A stretch of 64,000 nt of DNA from Mustelus asterias. Its lineage: Eukaryota. Of the stretch, positions 1-63,775 are shown in pieces (the first letter of the stretch is position 1; each line of letters opens with the position of its first letter). The notes under the pieces are model-generated. The model was not told where the DNA came from, ran no database searches, and was given only the letters and a program-made list of their open reading frames with translations. The translations under genes and the position numbers were made by a program. The stretch lies in assembly GCF_964213995.1 (NCBI RefSeq), contig NC_135824.1, forward strand, positions 33,418,001-33,482,000, given 5' to 3'.

Positions 1-2
1 CT

Positions 3-395
3 GACAGGGTATTCAGGACTCTTAGGGGGGAGGGAGATAAACCACAAGTTATTGTACATGTGGGGACACACGACATAGGGAGGATAGGGGAAGGGGATAT
101 TAGGCAGGGATTTATGGAGTTGGGGTGGAAACTAAAGGCCAAGACTGACAGAGTGGTTATCTCTGGACTCTTGCCTGTACCACGGGATAGTTTAGAGAGG
201 AATAGGGAGAGGGAAGGTTTGAATTCATGGCTGAGGGGATGGTGCAGGAGGGAGGGGTTCAGGTACTTAAGCAATTGGGGCTCGTACTGGGGAAGGTGTG
301 ACCTCTATGAGAAGGATGGTCTACACCTTAATCAGAAGGGGACCAATATCCTGGGGGGTAAATTTGCTAAGGCCATGCAGGGAGGTTTAAACTGA
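3..395 (+). CDS. CR1 ORF1p C-terminal SGNH/GDSL esterase-like domain (5' end outside window)
   Basis: Frame is open from nt 3: DRVFRTLRGEGDKPQVIVHVGTHDIG...ISGLLPVPR...LNSWLRGWC...DGLHLNQKG...GGLN*. Shows block III (GTxD) and block V (DxxH) esterase motifs. Confidence 0.85.
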   Translation, partial: DRVFRTLRGEGDKPQVIVHVGTHDIGRIGEGDIRQGFMELGWKLKAKTDRVVISGLLPVPRDSLERNREREGLNSWLRGWCRREGFRYLSNWGSYWGRCDLYEKDGLHLNQKGTNILGGKFAKAMQGGLN

Positions 396-445
396 TTCGG
401 GGGGGGGGAGGGATCCTGAGTAGTGGGGCTGAAAGTGAGGGATGC

Positions 446-3265
446 ATGGATGGGGACTGCAATGCACGGCATTGCAGAGGTGGGGTGGAGCAGGGTTTGA
501 AATGTGTATACTTCAATGCCAGGAGTATTCGCAATAAAGTGGGTGAACTTGCAGCGTGGATCAGTACCTGGGACTTCGATGTTGTGGCTATTTCAGAGAC
601 ATGGATAGAGCAGGGGCAGGAATGGATGCTGCAGGTCCCGGGGTTCAAATGTTTTAGTCGAAGTAGGGAAGGAGGTAGAAGAGGGGGAGGGGTAGCATTA
701 TTGGTCAGAGATTGTATCACAGTGTCAGAGAGGAGGTTTGATGAGGACTTATCTGTTGAGGTAGTATGGGCGGAGATTAGAAATAGGAGAGGAGAGGTCA
801 CCCTGTTGGGAGTCTTTTATAGACCTCCTAAAAGTTCTAGAGAGGTTGAGGAAAGGATTGCGGAGTCAATCCTGCTTAGGAGTGAAAGTAATAGGGCAAT
901 TGTTATGGGGGATTTTAACTTGACTAATATTGACTGGAATTGTTATAGCTCTAGCTCGTTAGAGGGGTCAGTTTTTGTTCAAAGCGTGCAGGAAGGTTTT
1001 TTGACTCAGTATGTAGACAGGCCAACTAGAGGTGAGGCTATATTGGATCTGGTGCTGGGAAATGAGCCAGACCAGGTGCTAGACTTGGAAGTTGGTGTGC
1101 ATTTTGGTGATAGTGACCACAATTCGGTTACGTTCACCTTAGTGATGGAAAGGGATAGGCATGAACCTCGGGCCAATGGTTTTAGCTGGGGGAAGGGTAA
1201 TTATGAGGCTATTAGGAGAGAATTAGGAAACATAGGTTGGACTAGGAGATTACAGGGACTGGGAACGTCCGACATGTGGAGTTTTTTCAAGGAGCAGCTA
1301 CTGCGAGTCTGTGATAGGTATGTCCCTGTCAGGCAAGGAGGAATTGGTAGGGCTAGGGAACCGTGGTGCACCAAAAAAGTTTCTTTGTTGGTTAAAAAGA
1401 AAAAGGAGGCTTATGTTCGGATGAGACGTGAGCACTCGGGTAGTGCACTAGAAAGCTTTAGATTGGCTAAGAGGGAGTTGAAGAGCGAGCTTAGAAGGGC
1501 TAAAAGGGGACATGAGAAGACTTTGGCGGATAGGGTTAAAGAGAATCCTAAGGCGTTCTATAGGTATGTCAAGAACAGAAGGTTGGTTAGGGCAAGTTTA
1601 GGGCCAGTTATAGATGGCAGAGGGAAGTTATGTGTGGAACCGGAGGAGATTGGTGAAGCATTGAACCAATATTTCTCTTCGGTGTTCACGCAAGGGGACA
1701 TGAATATAGCTGAGGAGGACACTGGGTTGCAAGGGAGTAGAATAGACAGTATTACAGTTGATAAGGAGGATGTGCAGGATATTCTGGAGGGTCTGAAAAT
1801 AGATAAATCCCCTGGTCCGGATGGGATTTATCCAAGGATTCTCTGGGAGGCAAGAGAAGTGATTGCAGAGCCTCTGGCTCTGATCTTCAGGTCGTCGTTG
1901 GCCTCTGGTATAGTACCAGAAGATTGGAGGTTAGCGAATGTTGTCCCATTGTTTAAGAAGGGGAACAGAGACTTCCCCGGGAATTATAGACCGGTGAGTC
2001 TCACTTCTGTTGTCGGCAAGATGTTGGAAAAAATTATAAGGGATAGGATTTATAGTTATTTGGAGAGTAATGAATTGATAGGTGATAGTCAGCATGGTTT
2101 TGTGGCAGGTAGGTCGTGCCTTACTAACCTTATTGAGTTTTTTGAGAAAGTGACCAAGGAGGTGGATGGGGGCAAGGCAGTGGACGTGGTATATATGGAT
2201 TTTAGTAAGGCGTTTGATAAGGTTCACCATGGTAGGCTTCTGCAGAAAATGCAGATGTATGGGATTGGGGGTGATCTAGGAAATTGGATCAGGAATTGGC
2301 TAGCGGATAGGAAACAGAGGGTGGTGGTTGATAGTAAATATTCATCATGGAGTGCGGTTACAAGTGGTGTACCTCAGGGATCTGTTTTGGGGCCACTGCT
2401 GTTTGTAATATTTATTAATGATCTGGATGAGGGTATAGTTGGGTGGATTAGCAAATTTGCTGATGACACCAAAGTCGGTGGTGTGGTAGACAGTGAGGAA
2501 GGGTGTCGTAGTTTGCAGGAAGACTTAGACAGGTTGCAAAGTTGGGCCGAGAGGTGGCGGATGGAGTTTAATGCGGAGAAGTGTGAGGTAATTCACTTTG
2601 GTAGGAATAACAGATGTGTTGAGTATAGGGCTAACGGGAGGACTTTGAATAGTGTGGAGGAGCAGAGGGATCTAGGTGTATGTGTGCATAGATCCCTGAA
2701 AGTTGGGAATCAAGTAGATAAGGTTGTTAAGAAGGCATATGGTGTCTTGGCGTTTATTGGTAGGGGGATTGAATTTAGGAGTCGTAGCGTTATGTTGCAA
2801 CTGTACACAACTCTGGTGCGGCCGCACTTGGAGTACTGTGTGCAGTTCTGGTCCCCACATTACAGGAAGGATGTGGAGGCTTTGGAGAGGGTGCAGAGGA
2901 GGTTTACCAGGATGTTGCCTGGTATGGAGGGGAGATCCTATGAGGAGAGGCTGAGGGATTTGGGATTGTTTTCGCTGGAAAGGCGGCGGCTAAGAGGGGA
3001 TCTTATTGAAACATATAAGATGATTAGAGGTTTAGATAGGGTGGATAGTGATAGCCTTTTTCCTCTGATGGAGAAATCCAGCACGAGGGGGCATGGCTTT
3101 AAATTGAGGGGGGGTAGTTATAGAACCGATGTCAGGGGTAGGTTCTTTACCCAGAGGGTGGTGAGGGATTGGAATGCCCTGCCAGCATCAGTAGTAAATG
3201 CGCCTAGTTTGGGGGCGTTTAAGAGATCCGTAGATAGGTTCATGGACGAAAAGAAATTGGTTTAG
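446..3265 (+). CDS. CR1 ORF2p, APE endonuclease plus reverse transcriptase, 939 aa, uninterrupted
   Basis: EN motifs YFNARS, ISETW, FYRPP, MGDFN, SDHN. RT motifs KSPGPDG, NYRPVSLTS, QHGF, DFSKAFD, GVPQGSVLGP, FADD. No stops or frameshifts. Same frame is open upstream to nt 371. Confidence 0.96.
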   Translation: MDGDCNARHCRGGVEQGLKCVYFNARSIRNKVGELAAWISTWDFDVVAISETWIEQGQEWMLQVPGFKCFSRSREGGRRGGGVALLVRDCITVSERRFDEDLSVEVVWAEIRNRRGEVTLLGVFYRPPKSSREVEERIAESILLRSESNRAIVMGDFNLTNIDWNCYSSSSLEGSVFVQSVQEGFLTQYVDRPTRGEAILDLVLGNEPDQVLDLEVGVHFGDSDHNSVTFTLVMERDRHEPRANGFSWGKGNYEAIRRELGNIGWTRRLQGLGTSDMWSFFKEQLLRVCDRYVPVRQGGIGRAREPWCTKKVSLLVKKKKEAYVRMRREHSGSALESFRLAKRELKSELRRAKRGHEKTLADRVKENPKAFYRYVKNRRLVRASLGPVIDGRGKLCVEPEEIGEALNQYFSSVFTQGDMNIAEEDTGLQGSRIDSITVDKEDVQDILEGLKIDKSPGPDGIYPRILWEAREVIAEPLALIFRSSLASGIVPEDWRLANVVPLFKKGNRDFPGNYRPVSLTSVVGKMLEKIIRDRIYSYLESNELIGDSQHGFVAGRSCLTNLIEFFEKVTKEVDGGKAVDVVYMDFSKAFDKVHHGRLLQKMQMYGIGGDLGNWIRNWLADRKQRVVVDSKYSSWSAVTSGVPQGSVLGPLLFVIFINDLDEGIVGWISKFADDTKVGGVVDSEEGCRSLQEDLDRLQSWAERWRMEFNAEKCEVIHFGRNNRCVEYRANGRTLNSVEEQRDLGVCVHRSLKVGNQVDKVVKKAYGVLAFIGRGIEFRSRSVMLQLYTTLVRPHLEYCVQFWSPHYRKDVEALERVQRRFTRMLPGMEGRSYEERLRDLGLFSLERRRLRGDLIETYKMIRGLDRVDSDSLFPLMEKSSTRGHGFKLRGGSYRTDVRGRFFTQRVVRDWNALPASVVNAPSLGAFKRSVDRFMDEKKLV

Positions 3266-3468
3266 GTTGGAGGGTCACAGTTTTTTTTTTAACTGGTCGG
3301 TGCAACATCGTGGGCCGAAGGGCCTGTTCTGCGCTGTAATGTTCTATGTTCTATGTTCTATGACTCGGATGATGATGACCCCTTCCCATGAACTCGAAGC
3401 CTTTGACTATTACTGATGTCCGCAAGCTTAGAGAAGTGACAAAAGTTAAATGTTTTATGATACCCTAT

Positions 3469-3820
3469 GGGGAGGCAATGGCCTAGTCGTATTATCGCTA
3501 GACTATTAACCTAGAAACTCAGCTAATGTTCTGGGGACCCGGGTTTGAATCCCACCAAGGCAGTTGGTGGAATTGAATTCAATAAAGAATATCTGGAATT
3601 AAGAATCTACTGATGACCATGAAACCATTGCTGAGTGTGGGGAAAAACCCATCTGGTTCACTAATGTTGTTCGGGGAAGGAAATCGTGATGTCCTTATCT
3701 GATCATGTGACTCCAGGGTCATGGCAATGTGGTTAATTCTCAACTGCCCTCCTAGGGCAACAAGGGATGGGCAATAAATGCTGGCCAGCCAGTGGTGCCC
3801 ATGTCCCATGAATGAATTTT
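3469..3820 (+). mobile_element. tRNA-derived SINE (family 3), 3' tail shared with the second CR1-clade LINE; other copies ~4888-5239(+), 20422-20778(-), 32190-32530(+), 53003-53560(+)
   Basis: Head has A-box (TGGCCTAGT) and B-box-like GGTTTGAATCCC. Tail GGGATGGGCAATAAATGCTGGCC...CCCATGAATGAAT matches the LINE 3' end at ~34910-34970. Confidence 0.8.
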
Positions 3821-4419
3821 TTTAAAAACCCTAAATTAAAAACACCCTCATTTATAAAACTGTTGCTATTCCCCTTATGTCATTAGGATCGCACCAGAGG
3901 GTTCAAAGCATTGAGTGCTGAAGGTGCGCACATGCTCATTCTGCTCCCTCGCTAATCATTTCAGATCTTGCATCATAAACAAGTTTAATTATATGAATAG
4001 TGAGTGCAAAGTGTAGCTGACAGGACTAGATTTATGTTGCAGGCAACATTCTGTCTGCCAGACAGTTCTGCTACCTGCCAGCTATTTTGTTAATCGAGGG
4101 AGACAGCAGGTGGCAGCAAGGTACACTTTCTGAGCATTAAAAACAAATCTTACACAAAAGGCACAATACCTTGGATGAGCGAAAGCTGAAATCAAATCAG
4201 AAAATGCTGGAGGATACTCGAGTTTAGCAGAGGGGAAATAATTTTAATGAGAGTTCACCGACATTGAGACTTTGGCCCAGGTTTTCACTCCTAGGTTTAC
4301 TCCGCAGGGATGAGAATTCCCGGCTTCTGTCGACCTCACCTTGGAAACTGGGAGCGTGCAGATCCAATTTTTGCTCCAGGGTGGGCAGTGGGCTGAATTA
4401 GAAGTCAAACCCGCCCCCC

Positions 4420-9185: not shown

Positions 9186-9514
9186 TTCCAATGTTTCTTG
9201 ATGAAGCAATGTTAGGAAGAGCAGGTCATTCAAAGGGAAATGAAATCCAACTCAATTAACATTAATGGAAATGATTAAATTGTCGCACTGCTTGATTTTG
9301 ATTTGTTGGAGTCACCAATGACTATGTTTTCACTCAGAAATATATTTTTCACCAATTCACAAACAACACTTACCTCCAACATCATAAAAAAACAACTATT
9401 GAGTCTTCGGGCAGCAACACAAACATCGGAACAGCTCCTTACCTAAGGAAGAGAGGGAATGTAGTAAAGGTTCACCAAACTAATTCCTGGGTTGTCTTAT
9501 AATAATAATAATGG

Positions 9515-10242
9515 TAGGACACTAGGAAGTTCTGTGGAACAAAGGGACCTTGTCCACAGATCTCTGAAAGCGGAAGGGCATGTTAGTAGGGTGGTGGAAA
9601 GCCCTATGAGACACTTGCCTTTATCAATCGAGGCATAGATTACAAGAGCAGGGAAGTCATGTTGGAGTTGTATAGAACTTTGGTGAGGCCACAGCTAGAC
9701 TACTGTGTGAGTTCTGGTCGCCACATTATCAGAAAGATGTGATTGCACTGGAGAGGGTGCAGAGGAGATTCACCAGGATGCTGCCTGGGATGGAATATTT
9801 AAGTTATGAAGAGAGGTTGGATAGGCTAGGGTTGTTTTCATTGGAGCAGAGAAGACTGAAGGGCGGCCTGATTGAGGTGTACAAGATTATGAGGGACATG
9901 GACAGAGTGGATAAGGAGCAGCTGTTCCCCTTAGTTGAAGGGTCAGTCACGAAGGGACATAGGTTCAAGGTGAGGGGCAGGAGGTTGAGGGGGGATGTGA
10001 GGAAAAACGTTTTTACCCAGAGTGTGGTGACAGCTTGGAATGCGCTGCCTGGGAGGGTGGTGGAGGCGGGTTGCCTCACATCCTTTAAAAAGTATCTGGA
10101 TGAGCACTTGGCACGCCATAACATTCAGGGCTATGGGCCAAGTGCTGGCAGATGGGAGATGGCAGGTGGGAGTTCAGGTGTTCCTAATGTGTCGGTGTGG
10201 CCTTGATGGTCTGAAGAGCCTCTTCTGTGCTGTATGCTTGTT
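9515..10242 (+). mobile_element. 5'-truncated CR1 (ORF2 C-terminal region)
   Basis: ORF 9739-10206 ALERVQRRFTRMLPG...YEERL...WNALP is homologous to the C-terminus of ORF 446-3265. Confidence 0.9.
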
Positions 10243-10243
10243 C

Positions 10244-12300
10244 TGAGGAGAGATTGAGAAAACTGAATCTGTATTCTCGAGAGTTTCGAAGACTGAGAGG
10301 TGATTTTATTGAAACATACCAAATTCTTACAGGTTTTGACAGGGTAGATGCAGGAAAGATGTTTCCCATGGTTGGGGGGGGTGGCGTGGGGGTGAGAGGG
10401 GTCCAGAACAGGGGTCTCAGTCTCAGAATAAGAGGTAGGCCACTTGGGACTGAGATTTAGAGGAATTTCTTCAGTCAGAGAGTGATGAATCTTGGGAATT
10501 CTCTACCTGAGAGGGCTGTGGAGACTCAGTCATAGAATCATAGAATCCTACCGTGCAGAAGGGGGCCATTTGGCACAATCCCACCCAGGCCCTATCCCCA
10601 TAACCCCATGCATTTACCTTAGCGAGTCTCCCTGACACTAAGGGGCAATTAAGTATGACCAATCCATCTAACCCACACATCTTTGGAGTGTGAGAGGAAA
10701 CCGGAGGAAACCCACGCAGACACGGGGAGTATGGATTCATGGATTCATGAAGGGAAAGTCGTGTTTGACGAATCTACTGGACTTTTATGAAGATGTCACT
10801 AGTGCGGTTGACAGAGGGGAACCGGTGGATGTGGTGTTTTTAGATTTCCAGAAGGCGTTCGATAAGGTGCCTCACAAAAGGTTGCTGCAGAAGATTGGGG
10901 TACACGGAGTTAGGGGTAAGGTGTTGGCGTGGATTGGAGATTGGCTATCTAACAGGAAGCAGAGAGTTGGGATAAATGGGTGCTTTTCTGGTTGGCAGTT
11001 GGTGACCAGTGGCGTGCCGCAGGGATCGGTGCTGGGGCCTCAATTGTTTACCATTTACATAGATGATCTGGAGGAGGGGACTGAATCTAGGGTATTCAAG
11101 TTTGCTGATGACACGAAGGTGAGTGGGAAAGCGAATTGCGTGGAGGACGCGGAAAGTCTGCAGAGAGATTTGGATAGGCTGAGCGAGTGGGCGAGGATCT
11201 GGCAGATGGAATATAACATTAGCAAATGTGAGGTTATCCACTTTGGAAGAAATAATAGTAAATTGGAATATTATTTAAATGGAGAAAAATTACATTGTGC
11301 GACTGTGCAGAGGGACCTGGGGGTCCTTGTGCACGAATCGCAAAAACTCAGTCTGCAGGTGCAGCAGGTGATCAAGAAGATGAATGGAATGTTGGCCTTT
11401 ATCGCGAGGGGGATAGAATATAAAAGCAGGGAGGTCTTGCTGCAACTGTACAAGGCACTGGTGAGGCCGCAACTGGAGTACTGTGTGCAGTTTTGGTCCC
11501 CTTATTTGCGAAAGGATATATTGGCCTTGGGGGGAGTGCAGAGAAGGTTCATCAAGTTGATACCGGAGATGAGGGGTGTAGTTTATGAGGAGAGATTAAA
11601 CAGATTGGGTCTGTACTCGTTGGAGTTTAGAAGGATGAGGGGTGATCTTATAGAGACATATAAGATAATGAAGGGGCTGGATAGGGTAGAGGTGGAGAGA
11701 TTCTTTCCACTTAGAAGGGAAACCAGAACTAGAGGGCACAGCCTCAAAATAAGGGGGGGCCGGTTCAGAACAGAGTTGAGGGGGAACTTCTTCTCTCAGA
11801 GGGTAGTGAATCTCTGGAATTCTCTGCCCATTGAAGTGGGCTTCCTCGTTGAATATGTTTAAATCACGGGTAGATAGTTTTCTGATCGATAAGGGAATTA
11901 GGGGTTATGGGGAGCAGGCGGGTAAGTGGAACTGATTCGCTTCAGATCAGCCATGATCTTGTTGAATGGCGGGGCAGGCTCGAAGGGCCAGATGGCCTAC
12001 TCCTGCTCCTATTTCTTATGTTCTTATGAGCTAACTCCACACAGACAGTGGCCCAAGCCGGGAATCAAACCTGGGTTCAATTATGGAGCTGCGAGGCAGC
12101 AGTGCTAACCACTGTGCCACTGTGCCGCCCACAGTCATTGCACATGTTTAAAGCAGGGGTCAATAGATTTCTGGATCCCAATGATATTAAGGAATATGGG
12201 AAAGTGCAGGAAGGCTGGTGTTGAGGTAGAAGATCGACCATGATCTAGTTAAATGGCAGAGCAGGCTCGAGGAGCCAAGTGATCCACTCCTATGTTCCAT
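10244..12300 (+). mobile_element. Old CR1 3' fragment (10244-10533 + 12132-12300) hosting a minus-strand HE1-like SINE (10534-12130), which itself hosts a younger CR1
   Basis: CAGTCAT is duplicated at 10527-10533 and 12132-12138. The SINE halves join across the inner CR1. Confidence 0.8.
10737..12028 (+). mobile_element. 5'-truncated CR1 (RT region to 3' end)
   Basis: HGFMKGKSCLTNL, DFQKAFD, GVPQGSVLGP, FADD in ORF 10690-11862. Tail (TTCTTATG)2. Confidence 0.93.
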
Positions 12301-17905: not shown

Positions 17906-18495
17906 ACAATGACAAATAAATGTAACAGCAGAAATAACTGATATTGCAACTAGCCCACTGTAAGGTGCGAGGATTTCTAGGCCCGGCTGACTGATGTTTC
18001 TCTGGGAAGCAGAGTGTTTCGAGCTTGATATATTCCTACAGAAGGATGGATTTGTTTCACAGACTCCCTCATTTGTTCGTTATAAGAATCATATGCAGAT
18101 GTTAAAACGTTCACATTTATGAAAATGTTTTTTTCATTAAGTAAAACAGATTTGTGTTGCTTGACAATTATTTTCCTGGCAAATCACCAGTGTTCAAATG
18201 CCAAACGTCTGCAAGCTCCAACTCTTGAAGCAGGTCCAATAGATTTTAAGAGCTATTGCTTACATTTTAAAGGAAATACGTGAATAACTAAACGTGCGTA
18301 GATTCCAGACGTACACATTTGATACTTTCCAAGTTGTTCATGTATCTTGTGTTTATCAAGGTGACCTTTCTCAGTCCTGGGAAACACATTACTATCTTTC
18401 CTTTCCAGCCACCACAGTGCATTGTCAAGTCAGGTTTAATAGAGACTCTGTCCACGTTAGAATTTCCACTGCATCTTTTGCCATGCTCTCAGTTT

Positions 18496-24240: not shown

Positions 24241-26961
24241 TGTAAAGAGTGTGAACATAAGAAAAACTGCATTGGTTTAGTGGCTTTTTTTTCAAAATTG
24301 TACAACCTGTTTTTACGTTGCCATCAGATAGGTTGCTGGTGTTACAATTATGAGGTTTAAAATATTATTTTTGAGGATTGTATCTTTAAATTGGGGGTAA
24401 CATGAAAGGGGTCAGTCAGTCTGACAATAAGCCTGGGTAACTGTCAGCGATCAAAGGAGAAATTATATTGTTTTACTGGGAAGAAAGTGTAAGGCACAGA
24501 AGCTTGGAGACCATAGAACATAGAACAGTACAGCACAGAACAGGTCCTTCGGCCCACGATGTTGTGCCGAGCTTTATCTGAAACCAAGATCAAGCTATTT
24601 CACTCCCTATCATCCTGGTGTGCTCCATGTGCCTATCCAATAACCGCTTAAATGTTCCTAAAGTGTCTGACTCCACTATCACTGCAGGCAGTCCATTCCA
24701 CACCCCAACCACTCTCTGCGTAAAGAACCTACCTCGGACATCCTTCCTATATCTCCCACCATGAACCCTATAGTTATGCCCCCTTGTAATAGCTCCATCC
24801 ACCCGAGGAAATAGTCTTTGAACGTTCACTCTATCTATCCCCTTCATCATTTTATAAACCTCTATTAAGTCTCCCCTCAACCTCCTCTGCTCCAGAGAGA
24901 ACAGCCCTAGCTCCCTCAACCTTTTCTCATAAGACCTACCCTCCAAACCAGGCAGCATCCTGGTAAATCTCCTCTGCACTCTTTCCAGCGCTTCCACATC
25001 CTTCTTATAGTGAGGTGACCAGAACTGCACACAATATTCCAAATGTGGTCTCACCAAGGTCCTGTACAGTTGCAGCATATCCCCAAAGCTCTTAAACTCC
25101 AACCCCCTGTTAATAAAAGCTAACACACTATAGGCCTTCTTCACAGCTCTATCCACTTGAGTGGCAACCTTCAGAGATCTGTGGAAAAGGATCCCAAGAT
25201 CTCTCTGTTCCTCCACAGTCTTCAGAACCTTACCTTTGACCCTGTAATCCACATTTAAATTTGTCCTACCAAAATGAATCACCTCACATTTATCAGGGTT
25301 AAACTCCATCTGCCATTTTTCAGCGCAGCTTTGCATCCTATCTATGTCTCTTTGCAGTCGACAACAGCCCTCCACCTCATCCACTACTCCACCAATCTTG
25401 GTGTCATCAGCAAATTTACTGATCCACCCTTCAGCCCCCTTCTCTAGGTCATTAATAAAAATCACAAATAGCAGAGGACCAAGCACTGATCCCTGTGGCA
25501 CTCCGCTAGCAACCTGCCTCCAGTCCAAAAATTTTCCATCCACCACCACCCTCTGTCTTCGATCAGATAGCCAGTTACCTATCCAATCGGCCAACTTTCC
25601 CTCTATCCCATACCTCCTTACTTTCATCATAAGCCGACCATGGGGGACCTTATCAAACGCCTTACTAAAATCCATGTATATGACATCAACTGCCCTCTCC
25701 TCATCAACACACTTAGTTACCTCCTCAAAAAATTCTATCAAATTTGTGAGGCACGACTTGCCCTTCACGAATCCGTGCTGACTGTCCCGGATTAATCCGC
25801 ATCTTTCTAAATGGTCGTAAATCCCATCCCTAAGGACCTTTTCCATCAACTTACCAACCACCAAAGTAAGACTAACCGGTCTATAATTACCAGGGTCATT
25901 TCTACTCCCTTTCTTAAACAGAGGAACAACATTCGCCACTCTCCAGTCCTCTGGCACCATCCCCGTGGACAGTGAGGACCCAAAGATCAAAGCCAAAGGC
26001 TCTGCAATCTCATCCCTTGCCTCCCAAAGAATCCTAGGATATATTTCATCAGGCCCAGGGGACTTATCGACCTTCAGTTTATTCAAAACTGCTAGTACAT
26101 CCTCCCTCCGAACATCTACTTCCTCCAGCCTATTAGCCTGTAACACCTTCTCTTCCTCACAATGGCAGGAGCTTGTGTGTTGGCAATGGAGACCGAGTCT
26201 CAAAAATCCCAAAAAAGTGTTGAGAATGTTGGGTTATAAACAACTGTGCTTTAAACTGTCCATTTAGTTCCAAGGTGAAAGAGGGTCTCAAGGATAGCTA
26301 ATTAGCATTTCTACGGAGATACAAACCTATGTGATTCACATTACCATAACAGAGGATGCAAAGAAAGCCATTATAAAGCTCAGGTTATAGGCGTTTTCGA
26401 GAATATCGCTGAATATCATATGGAGTGTTTTTAGTTTGCTCAGATCTAGGAGAGAAGAAACAACTAGAGGCCAAATAAAGTCTCCCAAATAGGTGTGCAA
26501 GTGGAAGCTTGCACTTGGATTAAAATGACTAAATTCATTGGAAGTTAAAACAAGCCTGGAAGAGTCACCTAGCTTGGGCTAGAGGACAGGTCTCCAGTAA
26601 AAGAAAACTTCACTGTGTAAGACAGTTCTAAGATTGCAAGGTACCAAGTTGAAAATAGAAAACAACAGGAAGCTAAAAATCACTTTGGATTGATTCTGGG
26701 GAAATATGTAAAAGGCAGTGTAAAGCATACCTCTGAATTGCTTATTTTCTTGTTAGGCTCGGAATAAGATGGGGATATTTTGTTCTGTGGCTTAAAGTAT
26801 AAGTTGACTACAAAGATTGTATTTAGTTTTTAGTATTTTACTCATTTGTTACAGTAAATATCTTCAGACATAAAATATTGATGTGTCATCCGATCAGCTA
26901 TTTAACTGGGAGTTCACATTTCTTTTTTAAAAAGTTATTAGTCTCTACGGGGATCGTAACA
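24241..26961 (+). mobile_element. Probable solo LTR (~1.07 kb) interrupted by a CR1
   Basis: Ends TGTAAAGA...TCGTAACA (TG...CA, 6/8 inverted match). No coding capacity outside the CR1. No clean TSD; orientation is uncertain. Confidence 0.45.
24512..26160 (-). mobile_element. 5'-truncated young CR1 with an uninterrupted RT-to-stop frame
   Basis: ORF 24590-26212 has KSPGPDE, NYRPVSLT, DFSKAFD, FADD. Minus-strand tail GTTCTATGTTCTATG. Confidence 0.95.
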
Positions 26962-44207: not shown

Positions 44208-47200
44208 TATTTAAATTTAATTCTTCATGTACAAGTTCCCCAAACCTGTGACATCTGACAGCTGCAAGGAGAGACGGCTTATTAAATATGGAAGCAAAGT
44301 GCCTTTCCACTGTTGTTGGATTGAAAGTGAATATATCTGCCACATCCCCATAAATGGCCAACATCCTCAACCCCTTCCGATCTCGCACCTATCTATCGCA
44401 GAAGACTCAGATTTCCTTCTTCTCCCACACAGCCCACGAGACCTCTGAGCTTTAAACCTCCTCCTCGCTCTGAGGCCTTTGACCTCTGATCCATTATTTC
44501 TCCAGAGGCCTGTGATCCCTCAGTCCTCCAACCTTCTCCCCACCGCTCTCAATATTTAAGTGACCTTGCCTCATCGAGTCATAGAGGTTTGCAGCATGGA
44601 AACGGGCCCTTCAGCCCAACTTGTCCATGCCGCCCTTTTTTTTAACCACTAAGCTCATCCCAATTGCCCGCATTTATCCCATATCCCTCTATACCCATCC
44701 TACCCATGTAACTGTCTAAATGCTTTTTAAAAGGCAAAATTGTACCTGCCTCTACTACTACTTCTGGCAGCTCGTTCCAGCCACTCACCACCCACTGTGT
44801 GAAAAAATTGCCCCTCTGGACTTTTTTGTATCTCTCCCCTCTCACCTTAAACCTATGCCCTGTAATTTTAGACTCCCCTACCTTTGGGAAAAGATGTTGA
44901 CTATCTAGCTGATCTATGTCCCTCTTTATCTTATAGGCCTCTATAAGATCACCCCTCAGCCTTCTATGCTCCAGGGAAATAGAAGGGGTACTTAACAAAA
45001 CTTTATAGAGAGGTGACGGAGGATTGTAACATTTCCCTGTTGATGTGATGCACGATTAAGGTTGTAATATATTTTGTCCCACATTACGGCATTACATTGT
45101 GTGTTCATGAAAAAAAAAGGTTCAGTCATCTTTCAATGATCTTGGTTTCTCTTTAAATGTTGCGGCAGTGGCACAGTGGTTAGCACTGCTGCCTCACAGC
45201 GCCAGGGACCCAGATTCAATTCCAGCCTCGGGTCACTGTCTGTGCAGAGTTCTCCCCATGTCTGCCTCTGGGTGCTCCAGTTTCCTCCCGCAGTCCAAAG
45301 ATGTGCGGGTTAGGTTGATTGGCCATGCTAAATTGACCCTAGTGTCAGGGGGATTAGCAGGGTAAATGTGTGGGAATTGTACGGGAATTGGGCTTGGGTG
45401 GGATGTGGTCGGTACAGACTCAATGGGCTGAATAGCCTCCTTCTGTACTGTAGGGATTCTATGATTTACAACAACTAGTTGCATTCAGAAAATATTTCTC
45501 ACTTAGACAATGCTTTACAAGGTAGAAAACATGATTGGCTGTAATATCTTCTCCACGTCGCTCACCATCCTGACTTAGAAATATCTCAACATTCCTTCAT
45601 CATCACTGGAACAATATCCCAGAATTCCCCAGCTGGCAACACCATGGGAAAGCAGTCACTCTAATAACTGCTGGAGTTCAGGTCGATGGTCCCTCAGCAA
45701 CACTGTCAGGGCAACTAAATGTGGTCTTGCCCCCATCCTGAGAGCAGCTCTTTAAAAAATGGAACAAAACTCTGCAAAAGAAGATCGATGATCTGCGTTA
45801 TTTTTAATTGGCGTAATGTAGGGAAACTCCCATGTTTGTTTATCAAAATAGTCTTCCATAGAAGTGAATGGGGATGAGTTGGATTTAATGTTGTGTTTGT
45901 CAGAGCCAAACAGCTAGGAACATATGCTCTTGTTAAAAATCACCCAATTTTGTGCTGTGATGATCTCAGAAATAACAAGATATCCATAGAGACCAGAGAG
46001 GTAAACCCCTGCCAGCCCAGCTGTTATTGTCTTACACCATTTCACCCCGACAACATTTGGAGTGGTTTTTCGGAGGACACTTACAAAACCATGGCTACTT
46101 CGTATCGATGTAAAATGGACTTCGTATGTTCCTGAGATCTCAACCCACATTTAAACAGGTTGGCTTAAAGATATCCACAGCAATAAAACCAGTAGGTCAC
46201 TCGAGATCCACTTCGAATGTGGCAGAAACAGGGCTCTTTGAGGTGAGTTGGACATTACTGAAGATCACTCTATTTTAGCTGCTTTTCTGCTAAATAGTCA
46301 CTACCCTTAGAAAGTCTGTTTTTTTCCATTGCCAGCTTGTAAGACCCAATCAGGGTCATAAAATCCTACAATGCAGAAGGAGGCCATTTGGCCCGAGTCT
46401 GCACCGACGACAATCACACCCAAGCCCTTCCCCCACAATTGCACACAATCACACACGGGGCATCACGGAGGCACGATGGTTAGCACTGCTGCCTCACAGC
46501 AGGTTCGATTCCCGGCTTGGGTCACTGTTTGTGCGGAGTTTGCACGTTCTCCCAGTGTCTGTGTGGGTTTCCTCTGGGTGCTCCGGTTTCCTCCCACAGT
46601 CTGAAAGACGTGCTGGTTAGGTGCATTGGCCGTGCTAAATTCTCCCTCAGTGCAACCGAACAGGTGCTGGATTGTGGTGACTAGGGGATTTTCACAGTAA
46701 CTTCATTACAGTGTTAATGTAAGCCTATTTGTGACACTGATAAATAAACTTTAAACATTTATCCTGCTAATCCCCCTGACACTAAGGGGCAACTTACCAT
46801 GGCCAATCCACCTAACTTGCACGTCCTTCGGACTGGGAGGAAACCGGAGCACCTGGAGGAAACCTACGCAGACACGGGGAGAACCTAAATAAGGCCAATT
46901 AAAGGAGGCTGATTGGGATTGTGTTGAAGCACTCTCATCATCTATTACAGTCTGTTGCTCCTCTCATGTTGGAAGGTCACTGATTGGTCCCCCCAGTTTT
47001 GAGAGCCAGCCTACTGTCTGGAGGAGAACCTTCCTCCATGGAGTGCCCATGTGAAAATCCCAGTGAGTGACTGACAGAATTGTACCTGCCTCTACTACTA
47101 CCTCTGGCAGCTTGTTCCAGACACTCACCACCCTGTGTGTCAAAAAATTGCCCCTCTGGACTCTTTTGTATCTCTCCCCTCTCACCTTAAACCTATGCCC

Positions 47201-50200
47201 TCTCATTTTAGACACCCCTATCTTTGGGAAAAGATGTTGACTATCTAGCTGATCTATGCCCCTCGTTATTTTATAGACCTCTATAAGATCACCCCGAAAC
47301 CTCCTACGCTCCAGGGAACAAAGTCCCAGTCTATCCAGCCTCTCCTTATAACTCAAACCATCAAGTCCCGGTAGCATCCTAGTAAATCTTTTCTGCACAC
47401 TTTCTAGTTTAATAATATCCTTCCTATAATGAGGATGAGCTGAACTGCACACAGCATTCCAAGTGTGGCATTACCAATGTATAGCAGGCAAGAAACAATA
47501 TTTTTCACTGTATCCTAATACATGTGACAATAATGAGTCAAATCAAATGATAATCTGTCACGTAAATACAAGCACTTCTTGTATTCACATCATTAGTTAC
47601 CAATAATACTTGATGGTCAGAATTATATTTAGTGTGAGAATTGTAACTGTGTTGACTATTGAATACTTGAAACTCAAGTGTTTGGCATGCATTGACGGCT
47701 GTATTTTCTCTCCTCATTCTGCATGTTTGAGTTGGAAGAGTAAGCTACACGTTAAAGTGTATCGTGCCCGCGTTTTATGATTAGCGTATGTTTTCTTTTC
47801 AGCAATATCCTGGGATACGGAGTCCAAATAAGGCACCGTCTTCAATTCTGATTTGAAGTTCAATCTGATGCCCCCCTGGGGGAATTGTTTAAATAAGTGC
47901 TTGCAGGCTCAAAGAAATGACAGTCCATAAATCATCATTGAAGAAAACTATTGTTACTTTTGCCATCACAATAGTTGAAAAGTGAGCCACTGACTTGCAA
48001 TCTACCAACTTCTTAAATGCACTGTGGATCTTATTTCAGTTTTAAGTATCTCCTTGACTAATCTTATTACACTTATTTTGGTTTCTGTTTCTCGGTAACA
48101 GTGCGTCTGTTCAGTAAGTCCTGTTTGTAATTTTCTTATTCCCAAGTTGCAGCCCCCAGTCATAAGTTCAGTCATTTATAGTGGTTTTTTTGTTCGGGGT
48201 TACATAAACCAGACTTCCACAAGGCTCGTATATCGCATCCATCGATGTTAATAAATAGGATTTTATTAATATGACATCATGGCATTCGGCTGAATTGAGA
48301 TCTGTGCTGGATGTTCTTCTTAGATGGATGATTTCATGGGTATATTCCCTCAAGTACAGGGAGCAGGAAAGTGAGAAAGAAAGAAGGAAATAAACAAGGA
48401 GAAAAAAAGACTTACATTTGTATTGTGCTTTTCATGATAAATGGATATCGCAAAACGCCTTACAGCCAGGGAAATATTTTTTTCCAAATGTGGTCATCGA
48501 AATAGAATCATAGAAACCCTACAGTGCAGAAGGAGGCCATTCGGCCCATCGAGTCTGCACCGACCACAATCCCACCCAGGCCCTACCCCCACATATTTAC
48601 CCGCTAATCCCTCTAACCTACGCATCCCAGGACTCTAAGGGGCAATTTTTAACCTGGCCAATCAACCTAACCTGCACATCTTTGGACTGTGGGAGGAAAC
48701 CGGAGCACCCGGAGTAAACCCATGCAGACACGAGGAGAATGTGCAAACTCCACACAGACAGTGACCCGAGCCGGGAATCGAACCCGGGACCCTGGAGCTG
48801 TGAAGCAGCAGTGCTAACCACTGTGCTACCATGCCGCCTTTCATGATTGTTACAGAGCCATGCAGCACAGAGACAGCCCCTTCGGCCAACCATGTCTGTG
48901 CCGACAGTAACAGTACGGCATGGTGGCACTGTGGTTAGCACTGCTGCTTCACAGCGCCAAGAACCCAAGTTTGATTCCTGGACTCTACACATTCTCCCCG
49001 TGTCCACGTGGGTTTCCTCCGGGTGCTCTGGTTTCCTCCCACAGTCTGAGAGACGTGCTGGTTAGGTGCATTGGCCATGCTCAATTCTCCCTCAGTGTAC
49101 CCGAACAGCGCCGGAGTGTGGCGACTAGGGGATTTTCACAGTGACTTCATTGCAGTGTTAATGTAAGCCTACTTGTGACACTCATAAATAAACTATAAAC
49201 AAATAAACATATACTAATCCCATTTACCAGCACTTGGACCGTAGCCTAATGTAGAAAACGTGGCAGTCAGTTTGTACACAGCAGGCTCCCATGGACAGTA
49301 ATGTTCCAATAACAATGTAATCGGTATTTTTACCATGTCGATTGAGTGAATAAATATTGGTCAGCACTTTGGGGAAAACTCCCCTGTTCCTCTTTATTTA
49401 ACGCAATGGGATCATTCACATCCACATGAGAGACAGGACCTCAAACAAATCACCTGAAAGAAGATAAATAGAAGATTAAGCGATGACCAAATTAAGATAA
49501 TTAAATAATTTGTTAAGTTGGATCAACTTATTTCTTCTGGTGGGAGGATCCAGCCCAAGGAAGCATAACCTCAACATTAGAGCGAGATCCCCTTTAAAGA
49601 TGGCGCCCTGATCTCTGTGTTTTGCTGGCATGCTTAGGCACTGTCTCCCTGCATGAAGGCGTGAAACGCCCCCTTGATTTCTTTTGGCGGGTGTCATAAA
49701 ACCTGGAGAGAAAAACCAACCCAACATGCTGGTTTTCCCACCAGAAACAACACTCTGCCATTTCTGTGGTAAGATTTAGCCCCTCGTTTCAGGTATCTGA
49801 TGACCAGTTATGACAGATTGATGGATACATTTGGTATTTGGTGCCTAAGCACTTGCTGAGAAGGTTAAAATATATATTTAAACAGGGAATCAATCAAAAA
49901 TTGTGGGTGGTCCAAATCTGGCTCCAGCCGTCTCTCGAACTCTTGCCCAGTATCATGTGGTGGTGTATCTGTCTGACTCCATTAATGAGAAGTCACAAGT
50001 AATGGAAAAATGGCACGATATAGCATAAATTTATGAATCACCCTGCGTTCTCCATTGCCTCCCTGTTTTAGCTTCTACAACTTCAAAGGTGTCTATGTCC
50101 CAGGTGGTTGTTCCCAGTCATTTCATTACCATCTGATTTTCCTCAGCAGTAGCTAGTTGATGTGGAGATTTTTACTCCTAGCATGACAACCTAACCTCAA

Positions 50201-51292
50201 TGATTCTGTGTCCCACAATCTGTACTGAAATGGAATACGGTAATTATATCCCTCCCTTCCAGTGCTCCTTGAATCTACTGCTTTCACTGGGCGCTGCATG
50301 TCACATCTGTATCATTTACACCTACCACATGTCAGAAAGAATAACGTGCACTTGCTTATTCTCTTATCACATCCACGCAGCGTTCCAAAGTAATTTGCAT
50401 GCAATAAATTATACTAGAAATACAGTCTCTGTTGCCATGTAAGCAATCTTGCTTTCTGTATCCAATTGCGCGCACGTGTGTGTAGAGGAGTGTTTTGCTC
50501 ACTGTATATCTAGATATAAAGTACTTACGTTATCTGAACTCAGTATTTATAGCCAAATAGAGAACCAAATCAATCCAGACTGTGGAAGTGTAGTCATCAT
50601 CAGTGCTACATTGTTAGCCCTCATCAGGAGTTTGAGGAGAGGGATTTTCCCCCCCAATCACCACCCCCAGCTCCCTCCTTCCTCCCCCACAACCCGGCAA
50701 GACTGACAAATGTATCCCCCAAGGAGTCTGACTGTAAGGGGGAGTGAAGATTATAGCCTGGAGCCAACACTTCAGACATATCTCAGTTAGATGTAAAGCA
50801 CCTTCGGACATACTGAAGTCATGAAAGGAACTATATCCTAGTAAATACAAATTAATTAATTCATTCCCAGTGTGAATTTGGGCCTCCTATTGCATCAGTT
50901 AGCTACTGAATATTACTGGAAAGGCATCTGCTCTAGATTTGATGGAAAGATACAACATGGGACTCATCTTAAACATGTTAATAAAAACAAACTATTGATA
51001 TTAAGTGATCAACTACAAAAGCACGATAGATAACAAATGGTATAGTTTTTAAAATATTACATAATGAAAGTTTTTACTTTGCTGGAACATGTATATTTAT
51101 TAAATGGATACATGAAAGAGAACAGTGCATTCAACCTCATTGAATAGCAGAGCAGATTCAATGGGCTGAATGGCCTACTTCTGCTCCTATGTCTTATTCT
51201 CTTATGGCATTCCTGAAGGACTGAATGTTCAATGATATACTTCATAACGTACCGCAGATAACCCTCAGCAATCGCAGTATTACTCATATTGC

Positions 51293-52404
51293 GAAGATTG
51301 GATCTCATGGGATAAAGGGGGAGGTGGCTAGATGGGTGGAGAACTGGCTTGGTCACAGAAGACAGAGGGTGGTAGTGGAAGGGTCTTTTTCCGGCTGGAG
51401 GCCTGTGATCAGTGGTGTTCCGCAGGGCTCTGTATTGGGACCTCTGCTGTTCGTGATTTATATAAATGATCTGGAAGAAGGTGTAACTGGGGTGATCAGT
51501 AAGTTTGCGGACGACACAAAATTGGCAGGACTTGCAGATAGTGAGGAGCATTGTCAGAAGCTACAGAAGGATATAGATAGGCTGGAAATTTGGGCAAAGA
51601 AATGGCAGATGGAGTTCAATCCTGATAAATGCGAAGTGATGCATTTTGGTAGAAATAATGTAGGGAGGAGCTATACGATAAATGGCAGAACCATAAACGG
51701 TGTAGTTACGCAGAGGGACCTGGGTGTGCAAGTCCACAGATCCTTGAAGGTGACGTCACAGGTGGAGAAGGTGGTGAAGAAGGCATATGGCATGCTTGCC
51801 TTTATAGGACGGGGCATAGAGTATAAAAGTTGGGGTCTGATGTTGCAGATGTATAGAACGTTGGTTCGGCCGCATTTGGAATACTGCGTCCAGTTCTGGT
51901 CGCCACACTACCAGAAGGACGTGGAGGCTTTGGAGAGAGTACAGAGGAGGTTTACCAGGATGTTGCCTAGTATGGAGGGGCTTAGTTATGAGGAGAGATT
52001 GGGTAAACTGGGGTTGTTCTCCCTGGAAAGACGGAGGATGAGGGGAGACTTAATAGAGGTGTATAAAATTATGAAAGGCATAGATAGGGTGAACGGTGGG
52101 AAGCTTTTCCCCAGGTCGGTGGTGACGTTCACAAGGGGTCATAGGTTCAAGGTGAAGGGGGGGAGGTTTAACATAGATATCAGAAGGACATATTTTACAC
52201 AGAGGGTGGTGGGGGCCTGGAATGCGCTGCCAGGCAAGGTGGTGGAGGCGGACACACTGGGAACATTTAAGACTTATCTAGACAGCCATATGAACGGAGT
52301 GGGAATGGAGGGATACAAAAGAATGGTCTAGTTTGGACCAGGGAGCGGCGTGGGCTTGGAGGGCCGAAGGGCATGTTCCTGTGCTGTATTGTTCTTTGTT
52401 CTTT
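51293..52404 (+). mobile_element. 5'-truncated young CR1 with open RT C-terminal frame
   Basis: ORF 51225-52331 has GVPQGSVLGPLLF, FADD. Tail GGGCCGAAGGGC...(GTTCTTT)2. Confidence 0.94.
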
Positions 52405-62843: not shown

Positions 62844-63234
62844 GTGAGTAAAACAGCTGGAGCTCTCTGCAGCATTTTTGTTTCAAGAGTATTGCATTAT
62901 ACGTTCAGGTTATTGGAGAATTTTACAGGACAGAGCAAGGACTACCGAGTGTTTGGTCATCCCCTTCCAAGGGGTGACACACCAGTCTCATTCCTTTCTG
63001 CCATCCCAGTGCTTTGAACGGCTATCACAGACACTGATCTCCCCCCTCACCAAGGGAGCACCATCCCTAACAATTGGAAGAAAATAAACTCTCCTTTCTA
63101 TATGTTCTTCCGCTGTTGATCTTTTAACTTATTCCCTCTGGTTAATAACTCACCAGTCAGTGGAAAAAATGTCGTCCTATGTCCACTACCTAAGAAAAAT
63201 ATTGGGGATCTCTTGTCAGGAGGGAGTGCTGAAT

Positions 63235-63775
63235 ATGGTCAGACCCCATTTGGAGTATTGTGAGCAGTTTTGGGTGCCATATCGAAGGAAGAATGTGCTG
63301 GCCTTGGAAAGAATGATCCCTGGAATGAAGAGCTTGTCGTTTGAGGAACGGTTGAGGACTCTGGGTCTGTACTTGTTGGAGTTTAGAAGGATGAGGGGGG
63401 ATCTTATTGAAACTTACAGGATACTGCAAGGCCTGGATAAAGTGGACATGGAAAGGATATTTCCACTAGTAGGAAAAGCGAGAACCAGAGGGAACAACCT
63501 CAGGCTAAAGGGACGATCCTTTAAAACACAGATGAGGAGGAATTTCTTCAGCCAGAGAGTGGTGAATCTGTGGAACTCTTTGCCGCAGAAGGCTGTGGAG
63601 GCCGGGTCATTGAGTGTCTTTAAGACAGAGATAGATAGATTCTTGATTAATAAGGGGATCAGGGGTTATTGGGAAAAGGCAGGAGAATTGGGATGAGAAA
63701 AATATCAGCCATGATTGAATGGAGCAGACTCGATGGGCCGAGTGGCCTAATTCTGCTCTTATGTCTTATGGTCTA
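63235..63775 (+). mobile_element. CR1 3' fragment
   Basis: VRPHLEYCEQFW...RRMRGDLIETY...WNSLP. Tail TCTTATGTCTTATGGTCT. Confidence 0.9.

Follow-up and report, generated by a model that had tools for sequence, protein, structure and literature searches.

Translation of ORF2 in LINEs has been described as an open question (PMC3894237). A CR1 element at the 5' edge of the stretch of DNA analyzed here (64,000 nucleotides, hereafter the window) raises this question in a specific form, namely how ribosomes reach an ORF2 that lies one base back from ORF1 and that often has no start codon in related copies. Based on comparison of sequences, ORF2 is likely expressed by a -1 programmed ribosomal frameshift at a U_UUA_AAC-stop-G-box signal, which would yield an ORF1-ORF2 fusion; we favor this reading because heptamer, stop and G-box are shared by the CR1s compared, which come from cartilaginous fish and birds, ORF2 is one base back, and the start codon is often absent. 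The window element is a young CR1 LINE that is 5'-truncated within ORF1, about 150 nt upstream of the window start, and its features are as follows.

3..395, + strand: 3' part of ORF1, SGNH/GDSL esterase type (from the reading frame)
386..392, + strand: slippery heptamer U_UUA_AAC (TTTAAAC), the final seven bases of ORF1 (from the sequence; identical in 26 of 26 lineage copies)
393..395, + strand: ORF1 stop adjoining the heptamer, TGA here, TAG or TAA in other lineages (from the sequence and the lineage alignment)
393..496, + strand: linker, open in the -1 frame, sequence not conserved (lineage comparison)
399..408, + strand: G10 run, its first four G lineage-specific and its length variable among copies (copy and lineage comparison)
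403..412, + strand: conserved G-box GGGGG-NN-GGG, +11 to +20 from the heptamer, candidate stimulator (25 lineage copies)
446..448, + strand: first in-frame ATG of ORF2 in the window family, not conserved (lineage comparison)
457..477, + strand: perfect 9-bp hairpin, family-specific (27-nt in-frame loss in 2 of 40 copies)
497..3265, + strand: ORF2 core, APE endonuclease and reverse transcriptase, intact (PF03372, PF14529, PF00078)
3266..3362, + strand: short 3' UTR with three 7-bp repeats at its end and without poly(A) (sequence reading)

The element was assigned to CR1 from its domains, its tail, and the match of its junction to consensus cells labelled CR1. The full 309-aa ORF1 of the sister copy L022 matched PF13472 (E 1e-7), indicating an esterase-type ORF1; PMC13343379 gives such an ORF1 as typical for vertebrate CR1 and the CR1 group as the dominant retrotransposon in most vertebrate species. 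The ORF2 endonuclease is alignable to L1 endonuclease and to exonuclease III, and the three tail repeats (3341-3361) form a short-repeat tail as in canonical vertebrate CR1. No relatives were found in the viral contig collection or the genome contig collection searched. The sense strand of the element is G-rich (GC skew 0.43).

The arrangement of frames described in the original prediction was confirmed. ORF1 is read as GGT(384) TTA(387) AAC(390) TGA(393), and the TTTAAAC at 386-392 is therefore in X_XXY_YYZ phase. The -1 frame, claimed to run without a stop from 371 to the ATG at 446 and to be the frame of ORF2, is open from 371 to 3265 (964 aa). The TGATTC spacer and the coordinates of each G-tract (G10 at 399-408, GGG at 410-412, GGGG at 425-428, GGG at 439-441 and GGGG at 452-455) were likewise correct. 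TTTAAAC followed by a stop occurs once in the window when both strands are searched, and assembled contigs of three further public runs (X1, X10 and X8, one of them possibly the source of the window DNA) span the junction without an indel.

Conservation of this junction beyond amino-acid constraint had been anticipated; it was found for the heptamer, the adjacent stop and the open -1 frame, and not for the G10 run and the further G-tracts, which are lineage-specific. Among 26 lineage copies with ORF1 identity down to 24% (chosen after junctions were seen, with L083, L195, L178 and L045 omitted, and not independent because the lineages share ancestry), 3 of the 114 third positions in ORF1 are invariant, and all three lie inside the heptamer. 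The original prediction named free synonymous variation at GGT-TTA-AAC as evidence against itself, and the heptamer wobble positions proved invariant in these copies. The codon preceding Leu encodes seven different residues and always has T as its third base; other conserved Leu, Gly and Phe columns of ORF1 use two to five codons each. Synonymous sites outside the heptamer are saturated, and in the endonuclease, used as a control, 0 of 75 third positions are invariant (17 copies). The comparison supports the conclusion that constraint beyond amino-acid need acts on the heptamer, the adjacent stop and the open -1 frame across the lineages examined.

Counts made on larger sets were consistent with this pattern. 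When the ORF1 protein end served as a heptamer-blind anchor, the exact TTTAAAC plus stop stood at the expected position in 173 of 195 places; the remaining 22 comprised seven with the heptamer kept and the stop mutated, six with the stop kept and one heptamer base changed, four with an intact site off the anchor, four that were damaged, and one without the site. Genome-wide, in a count conditional on stop and G-box, the exact heptamer was present at 18,145 of the 19,257 sites with any Leu/Phe-Asn codons plus stop plus G-box (controls: 6, for the reversed exact heptamer-stop-G-box pattern, and 351). The statement in the original prediction that other vertebrate CR1 ORF1s end in -LN* was accurate for 85 of 89 ORF1s of birds, turtles and rays, and an LN C-terminus was also present in 27 of 35 ORF1 proteins of a second set. 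In published consensus cells, compared over 400 letters each, the heptamer site is visible for crocodilians, lizard, frog, coelacanth, bowfin, elephant shark, sharks and rays. A search of the consensus supplement for six synonymous heptamer variants plus TAG yielded 11 matches, none of them in CR1 rows.

The distance from the heptamer to the endonuclease is approximately 100-270 nt depending on lineage, with the frame kept. The original prediction had also named a family consensus with stops or a variable phase between heptamer and ORF2 as counter-evidence. Among 181 places, the endonuclease motif was in the -1 frame relative to the heptamer in 155 (146 open, 9 with a stop), in another frame in 16, and not seen in 10, so that 146 of 181 are both open and in frame. 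An in-frame ATG before the endonuclease is present in 58 of the 146 open junctions and absent from 88. The ATG at 446 is missing in the related lineages K1 and K2 and is ATA in sister-lineage contigs of three runs, and the presence of a linker ATG requires at least five changes on a tree of 24 copies. In B1, B4, D1, D2 and K2, the first Met falls downstream of the Glu aligned to L1 E43. Family F1 (nine copies, 99.1% identical) has no in-frame ATG before the endonuclease, and one of its copies is open for 977 codons from the heptamer (an intact ORF2).

Past the stop, the conserved element is a fixed-register GGGGGNNGGG box, located 10 nt beyond the heptamer and without a shared fold; each of its G residues is kept in 24 or 25 of 25 lineage copies, including three -1-frame wobble positions. 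The length of the G run was counted by hand in the first 100 listed of 2,628 family copies with a pattern that admitted 6-14 letters: 76 had G10, 16 had G11, three had G12, two had G9, one each had G13 and G14, and one was interrupted. Of the 24 copies deviating from G10, 23 are out of frame, which counts against the frameshift reading. G10 was present in 28 of 30 copies of a top-ranked, biased set, and it is broken at 401 and 409 in sister-lineage contigs in other runs. The full ORF2 from ATG 446 is retained in 11 of the 16 G11 copies. A spreading G11 sub-lineage was considered and rejected, as no private variant occurred in at least 3 of the 16 copies and several backgrounds were represented; this test has low power because the copies are so alike (98.8-99.97%).

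The original prediction interpreted the 6-nt spacer and four G-tracts as a G-quadruplex stimulator, and this part was not supported. With the criterion set as four conserved G3 tracts with loops of 1-7 nt, 6-8 nt past the heptamer, the canonical three-tier pattern was present in only 2 of 25 lineage copies; the window junction fits a three-tier pattern only with a 12-nt loop. A relaxed pattern (loops up to 12 nt) was found in 3 of 25 copies, and 18 of 25 had a two-tier pattern. Folded locally, the window junction did no better than shuffles (z -1.28 to 0.77), and per-lineage z values for +6..+75 scattered from -2.3 to +2.6. The consensus fold of 25 junctions was empty, that of six bird-like junctions reached only -3.8 kcal/mol, and the best long-range partners of the G-box among 15 copies (several broken or with insertions) were at unrelated places. 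A classic stimulator appears to be missing, because the comparison of junctions revealed neither a conserved hairpin or pseudoknot stem nor a conserved long-range partner.

We suggest that most ribosomes would terminate at the ORF1 stop, setting the esterase ORF1p free, and that a minority would slip back with the Leu and Asn tRNAs on UUA-AAC and continue as ...GGLN/LIRGGGG..., producing an esterase-endonuclease-RT protein of ~1,270 aa in a low, fixed proportion. On mammalian ribosomes, U_UUA_AAC ranks with the most slip-prone heptamers (PMC5009743). The pause might, with less certainty, be due jointly to the adjacent stop and to the linear G-box lying 10 nt downstream. We give roughly even chances to the candidate G-box acting via a bound protein, for which hnRNP F/H are candidates; that it has another job is less likely, and action as a G-quadruplex is less likely again. 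A broader proposal, for which we would claim somewhat less than even confidence, is that jawed-vertebrate esterase CR1s make RT only as a Gag-Pol-like fusion, and that the unstructured GGGGGNNGGG box at +11, with a host protein or ORF1p itself as its binder, may be an undescribed natural stimulator that predates the shark-bird divergence. No earlier description of a -1 frameshift signal in CR1 was found in the literature searched.

LINE ORF2 expression is usually explained by termination-reinitiation, which has been proposed for L1 and demonstrated for SART1, where a downstream element is required (PMC3708506, PMC5972666). Applied here, ribosomes would stop at the ORF1 end and resume in the -1 frame, at an AUG or non-AUG codon close by, with heptamer and G-box positioning the post-termination ribosome. 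Overlapping UAAUG in lineage E and in three shark consensus cells, an ATG 2 nt past the stop (at +6) in four bird-like copies, and the frequency of out-of-frame G11 copies all fit this explanation, which we nevertheless regard as improbable. An in-frame AUG lies within 6 nt of the ORF1 stop in 5 of 26 lineage copies and not in the window copy, and in most lineages the stop is overlapped by CUA, which is not a start codon. The ATG-less majority of open junctions argues against a restart at AUG; it is compatible with reinitiation in so far as L1 ORF2 is reported to start AUG-independently (PMC5009743). Several G-boxes contain a UGGGA resembling the TURBS core; however, TURBS sits upstream of the stop-restart site, whereas the G-box sits downstream (PMC5972666). 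Reinitiation also leaves unexplained why the wobble positions stay fixed in what is exactly an X_XXY_YYZ heptamer in slip phase, and why the linker is open from the heptamer on although the ATG is far downstream.

Two further explanations dispense with ribosomal recoding at this site. Frame repair at the RNA level, by a splice close to the end of ORF1 or by slippage of a polymerase on the T/A or G runs, draws on gene predictors, which in 8 of 23 long bird proteins pass from ORF1 into the -1 frame immediately ahead of 'FKL', and on the frequent base gain or loss in the G run; we consider it the least probable of the three. No AG acceptor is kept at the junction, because the stop varies among TAG, TAA and TGA, and positions -9/-8 are variable; contigs spanning the junction (contigs only, their RNA status guessed) contain no joints. 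An indel in the G run cannot bypass the ORF1 stop, because the run lies past it, and a T3-A3 run is too short for transcriptional slippage. It is also very doubtful that Leu-Asn is simply a required C-terminus, or the motif one for RNA packaging, reverse transcription or recombination, with the slippery match an inherited coincidence. The prevalence of LN ends in both protein sets, the common ancestor of all lineages and the G-rich sense strand are consistent with such a coincidence, but protein constraint cannot dictate codon choice: within the ORF1 body, Leu is encoded by TTA in 39 of 302 cases and Asn by AAC in 49 of 131, and the codons of a Leu-Asn pair situated 20 codons upstream vary freely against a background of saturated synonymous sites. 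ATG-less ORF2s would, moreover, be left without an expression route.

If the frameshift reading is correct, CR1 ORF2 annotations that begin at the first ATG would be wrong or would cut into the endonuclease, and whether a CR1 copy is intact would need to be assessed in the frame that continues from the heptamer. Esterase and RT would form one covalently joined polypeptide, antiviral frameshift inhibitors could affect a host transposon, and the G-box would become a candidate for a naturally occurring, sequence-specific stimulator. With a signal of 30 bases, the ORF2 translation question becomes directly testable by reporter.

Retroviral gag-pol and coronavirus 1a/1b have an X_XXY_YYZ heptamer and a structural-to-enzyme ORF order as in CR1; however, their sites have a hairpin or pseudoknot 5-8 nt downstream, whereas the CR1 junctions have none conserved. 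Rous sarcoma virus and equine arteritis virus likewise have a stop directly 3' of the heptamer. U_UUA_AAC itself is the IBV frameshift site (PMC5009743). Dictyostelium TRE5-A and TRE3-A are, like CR1, APE-type LINEs, and they are reported to require a -1 frameshift for ORF2 (PMC5911963), although they belong to a different clade and a different host kingdom and have an unrelated ORF1. SART1 UAAUG coupling and L1 reinitiation also express ORF2 from a bicistronic RNA, aided by downstream sequence (PMC3708506, PMC5972666), but they yield a separate ORF2p and need neither a slippery heptamer nor a frame open back to the ORF1 end. Synthetic G-quadruplexes share a G-rich 3' element with CR1 and give about 7% frameshifting when the spacer is 6-8 nt (PMC3919603); they require four G3 tracts with short loops, with fewer quartets giving less shift, whereas only the 2 of 25 CR1 copies noted above have that pattern, and the CR1 spacer is 10 nt. 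The PRRSV nsp2 signal, like the CR1 G-box, consists of a short linear motif of low complexity whose distance from the shift site is fixed, at 11 nt on the 3' side in PRRSV (PMC5009743); it is C-rich and bound by PCBP and viral nsp1beta, whereas the CR1 motif is G-rich and its binder is postulated.

We located the window at G000:C24:33418001-33482000 in the 3.68-Gb Mustelus asterias genome (G000), and rechecking its sequence bore out all coordinates of the original prediction. It holds one LINE copy with an ORF1/ORF2 junction and five further CR1-like ORF2 fragments (36-70% identity), none of which includes an ORF1 junction:

Window 1-3362: LINE copy, truncated with its 5' end inside ORF1; esterase ORF1 and intact endonuclease-RT ORF2
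Window 9510-11838: CR1-like ORF2 3' fragment
Window 24608-26161: CR1-like ORF2 3' fragment
Window 47078-47615: CR1-like ORF2 3' fragment
Window 51288-52295: CR1-like ORF2 3' fragment
Window 63232-63654: CR1-like ORF2 3' fragment

By protein comparison, the nearest named relatives of the window ORF1 come from sharks and rays. The family of this copy appears very young from its sequences: all 150 scored matches (150/150) show 100% identity across 130 aa, its junction pattern occurs at 2,628 places in the genome, and 40 copies are 98.8-99.97% alike. Contigs from public sequencing runs X1, X10, and X8 read through the junction with neither insertion nor deletion, and X5 contigs break at the G-run. 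A run of ten Gs (G10) is the commonest state of this G-run (76/100 among the matches listed, of 2,628 in all). In a fuller copy (L022, 1-800), the 5' UTR consists of tandem units of ~240 nt. Runs filed under seven organisms and one hot-spring metagenome share 0.78-0.98 of the words of window 1-1200, which may reflect close kin, horizontal transfer, or contamination.

Comparative analysis indicates that the TTTAAAC heptamer (window 386-392) preceding the ORF1 stop is a real and deeply conserved signal. We compared 26 lineages by one natural copy each (19 from G000 and 7 from bird-like metagenome contigs), selected after the junctions were seen and with loci L083, L195, L178, and L045 left out. 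ORF1 identity to the window copy falls from 74% to 24%, and the heptamer is present in 26/26. Across the last 120 ORF1 codons, only three of 114 third positions are invariant, all inside the heptamer. The codon preceding Leu encodes G, A, S, C, T, R, or D, yet it ends in T without exception. A comparison Leu-Asn pair lying 20 codons upstream is encoded in many ways, and in the endonuclease (17 copies) 0/75 third positions are invariant and a single codon is kept at 0/12 invariant residues. A genome-wide search for YTN-AAY-stop followed by the G-box (GGGGG-NN-GGG, +11 to +20 from the heptamer), which is blind to families lacking the stop or the G-box, identified 19,257 places (control, 351), 18,145 of them with the exact heptamer (control, 6); this count, independent of copy choice, agrees with the 26-copy result. 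Among the first 100 of these 19,257 places listed, four carry heptamer variants, no two the same.

We also used five ORF1 queries and one endonuclease query to collect G000 loci, and added direct fetches and one metagenome scan. ORF1 ends were placed by tblastn with queries stripped of their last six residues, so that anchoring was blind to the heptamer. After removal of 21 stretches without an ORF1 end, 2 cut off, and 13 duplicate fetches, 231 stretches gave 195 places, among which a few duplicates may remain. TTTAAAC plus stop stood exactly at the predicted place in 173/195; in the other 22, the stop was mutated behind a kept heptamer (7), one heptamer base was changed before a kept stop (6), the site was intact but off anchor (4), damaged (4), or absent (1, L083).

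Other vertebrate CR1 ORF1s do end in -LN, as the original prediction suggested: this C-terminus occurs in 27/35 protein matches of a first search, the other 8 being partial or reading on, and in 85/89 further matches, birds, turtles, and rays among them. The supplement of PMC13343379, in consensus cells cut at 400 letters, contains 23 heptamer-plus-stop matches (a motif-based search with no denominator), 18 lying by eye at the ORF1/ORF2 junction (17 rows labeled CR1, 1 Crack) and 5 elsewhere; the G-box is weak or shifted in several of these cells. P0011 and P0119, vertebrate CR1 ORF1 proteins recorded as coming from Pseudomonas aeruginosa and Klebsiella pneumoniae, are likely host DNA within bacterial assemblies.

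The conserved signal likely marks a frameshift, and we regard it as highly probable, from sequence evidence, that the ribosome would undergo -1 programmed frameshifting here to give an ORF1-ORF2 fusion. Among 181 heptamer places, the endonuclease motif lies in the -1 frame in 155, in another frame in 16, and was not seen in 10; the predicted open -1 frame between heptamer and ORF2 holds in 146. Constraint on the heptamer unconnected with recoding is very improbable, and RNA-level repair of the frame is the least probable reading. Reinitiation, in which ORF2 would be started anew after the ORF1 stop, is improbable. An in-frame ATG is present in 58 of the open junctions and absent from 88. Upstream of the heptamer, the -1 frame reaches back 1-37 codons before it closes, with a Met in none of the lineage copies. 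Family F1 (9 copies, 99.1% identical) has no ATG ahead of the first endonuclease strand, and in its copy L231 the frame runs for 977 codons with no stop. The window ATG at 446 is missing from related lineages K1 and K2. In contigs of a sister lineage from three runs it is replaced by ATA; these contigs show no differences at 386-395 among 40 of 72 difference rows listed. On a 24-row tree (lineages H and x67 left out), presence of an ATG in the heptamer-to-endonuclease linker requires at least 5 changes.

Counted against frameshifting were G-runs deviating from G10, AUGs close to the stop (≤6 nt in 5/26 lineage copies), and the AUG-independent initiation favored for L1 (PMC5009743). The G-run is not G10 in 24/100 window-family copies among the matches listed, 23 of them out of frame; such copies could be functional if ATG 446 were the start. 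The 939-aa frame is kept in 11/16 G11 copies. No variant is private to the G11 copies, and they are found on several backgrounds; this fits repeated slippage or assembly error, although the power of the comparison is low.

Several junctions are unusual. L032 (G000:C2:68786500-68791800, 667-4065, minus strand), a lone natural 5'-truncated copy that lost the stop and has a G-run longer by one, carries ORF1 and ORF2 in a single 1,132-codon frame. In lineage C (L147-L165), the linker is 270 nt long, and within it a degenerate version of the endonuclease opening motif precedes the real one, with the -1 frame still kept; L146 has a similarly long linker. Public gene models (P0031, P0043, P0045, P0047, P0050, P0054-P0056, and P0058; one stingray, eight stork) already pass from ORF1-like sequence into the -1 frame at "FKL".

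As for a candidate stimulator, G occupies +11 to +15 and +18 to +20 in 24-25 of 25 copies; three of these sites are wobble positions of the -1 frame (GGG makes up 37% of Gly codons elsewhere). The window G10 is this conserved G-box lengthened 5' by substitution, its register unchanged. The G-quadruplex stimulator originally proposed is not supported; a canonical three-tier quadruplex pattern occurs in 2/25 copies, a relaxed one in 3 (the window among them), and a two-tier one in 18. Lineage junction comparisons revealed no shared hairpin or long-range partner. A perfect 9-bp hairpin at window 457-477 is removed by an identical in-frame 27-nt deletion in L252 and L280, whose G-run lengths differ.

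We found no paper proposing frameshifting in CR1 in the literature searched; 1990s chicken/turtle CR1 descriptions, Repbase notes, and primary TRE5-A/SART1/L1 papers lie outside it and may already raise the idea. The proposal does not appear in the sections covered of PMC5009743, PMC11835228, PMC3919603, PMC5006619, PMC5911963, PMC3708506, PMC5972666, and PMC3894237, and the word "frameshift" is absent from the main text of PMC13343379. Frameshifting as such would not be new among LINEs, because PMC5911963 attributes a -1 frameshift to Dictyostelium TRE5-A and TRE3-A. By analogy, the layout of the CR1 G-box resembles that of PRRSV, in which a protein-bound CCCANCUCC lies 11 nt after the shift site (PMC5009743).
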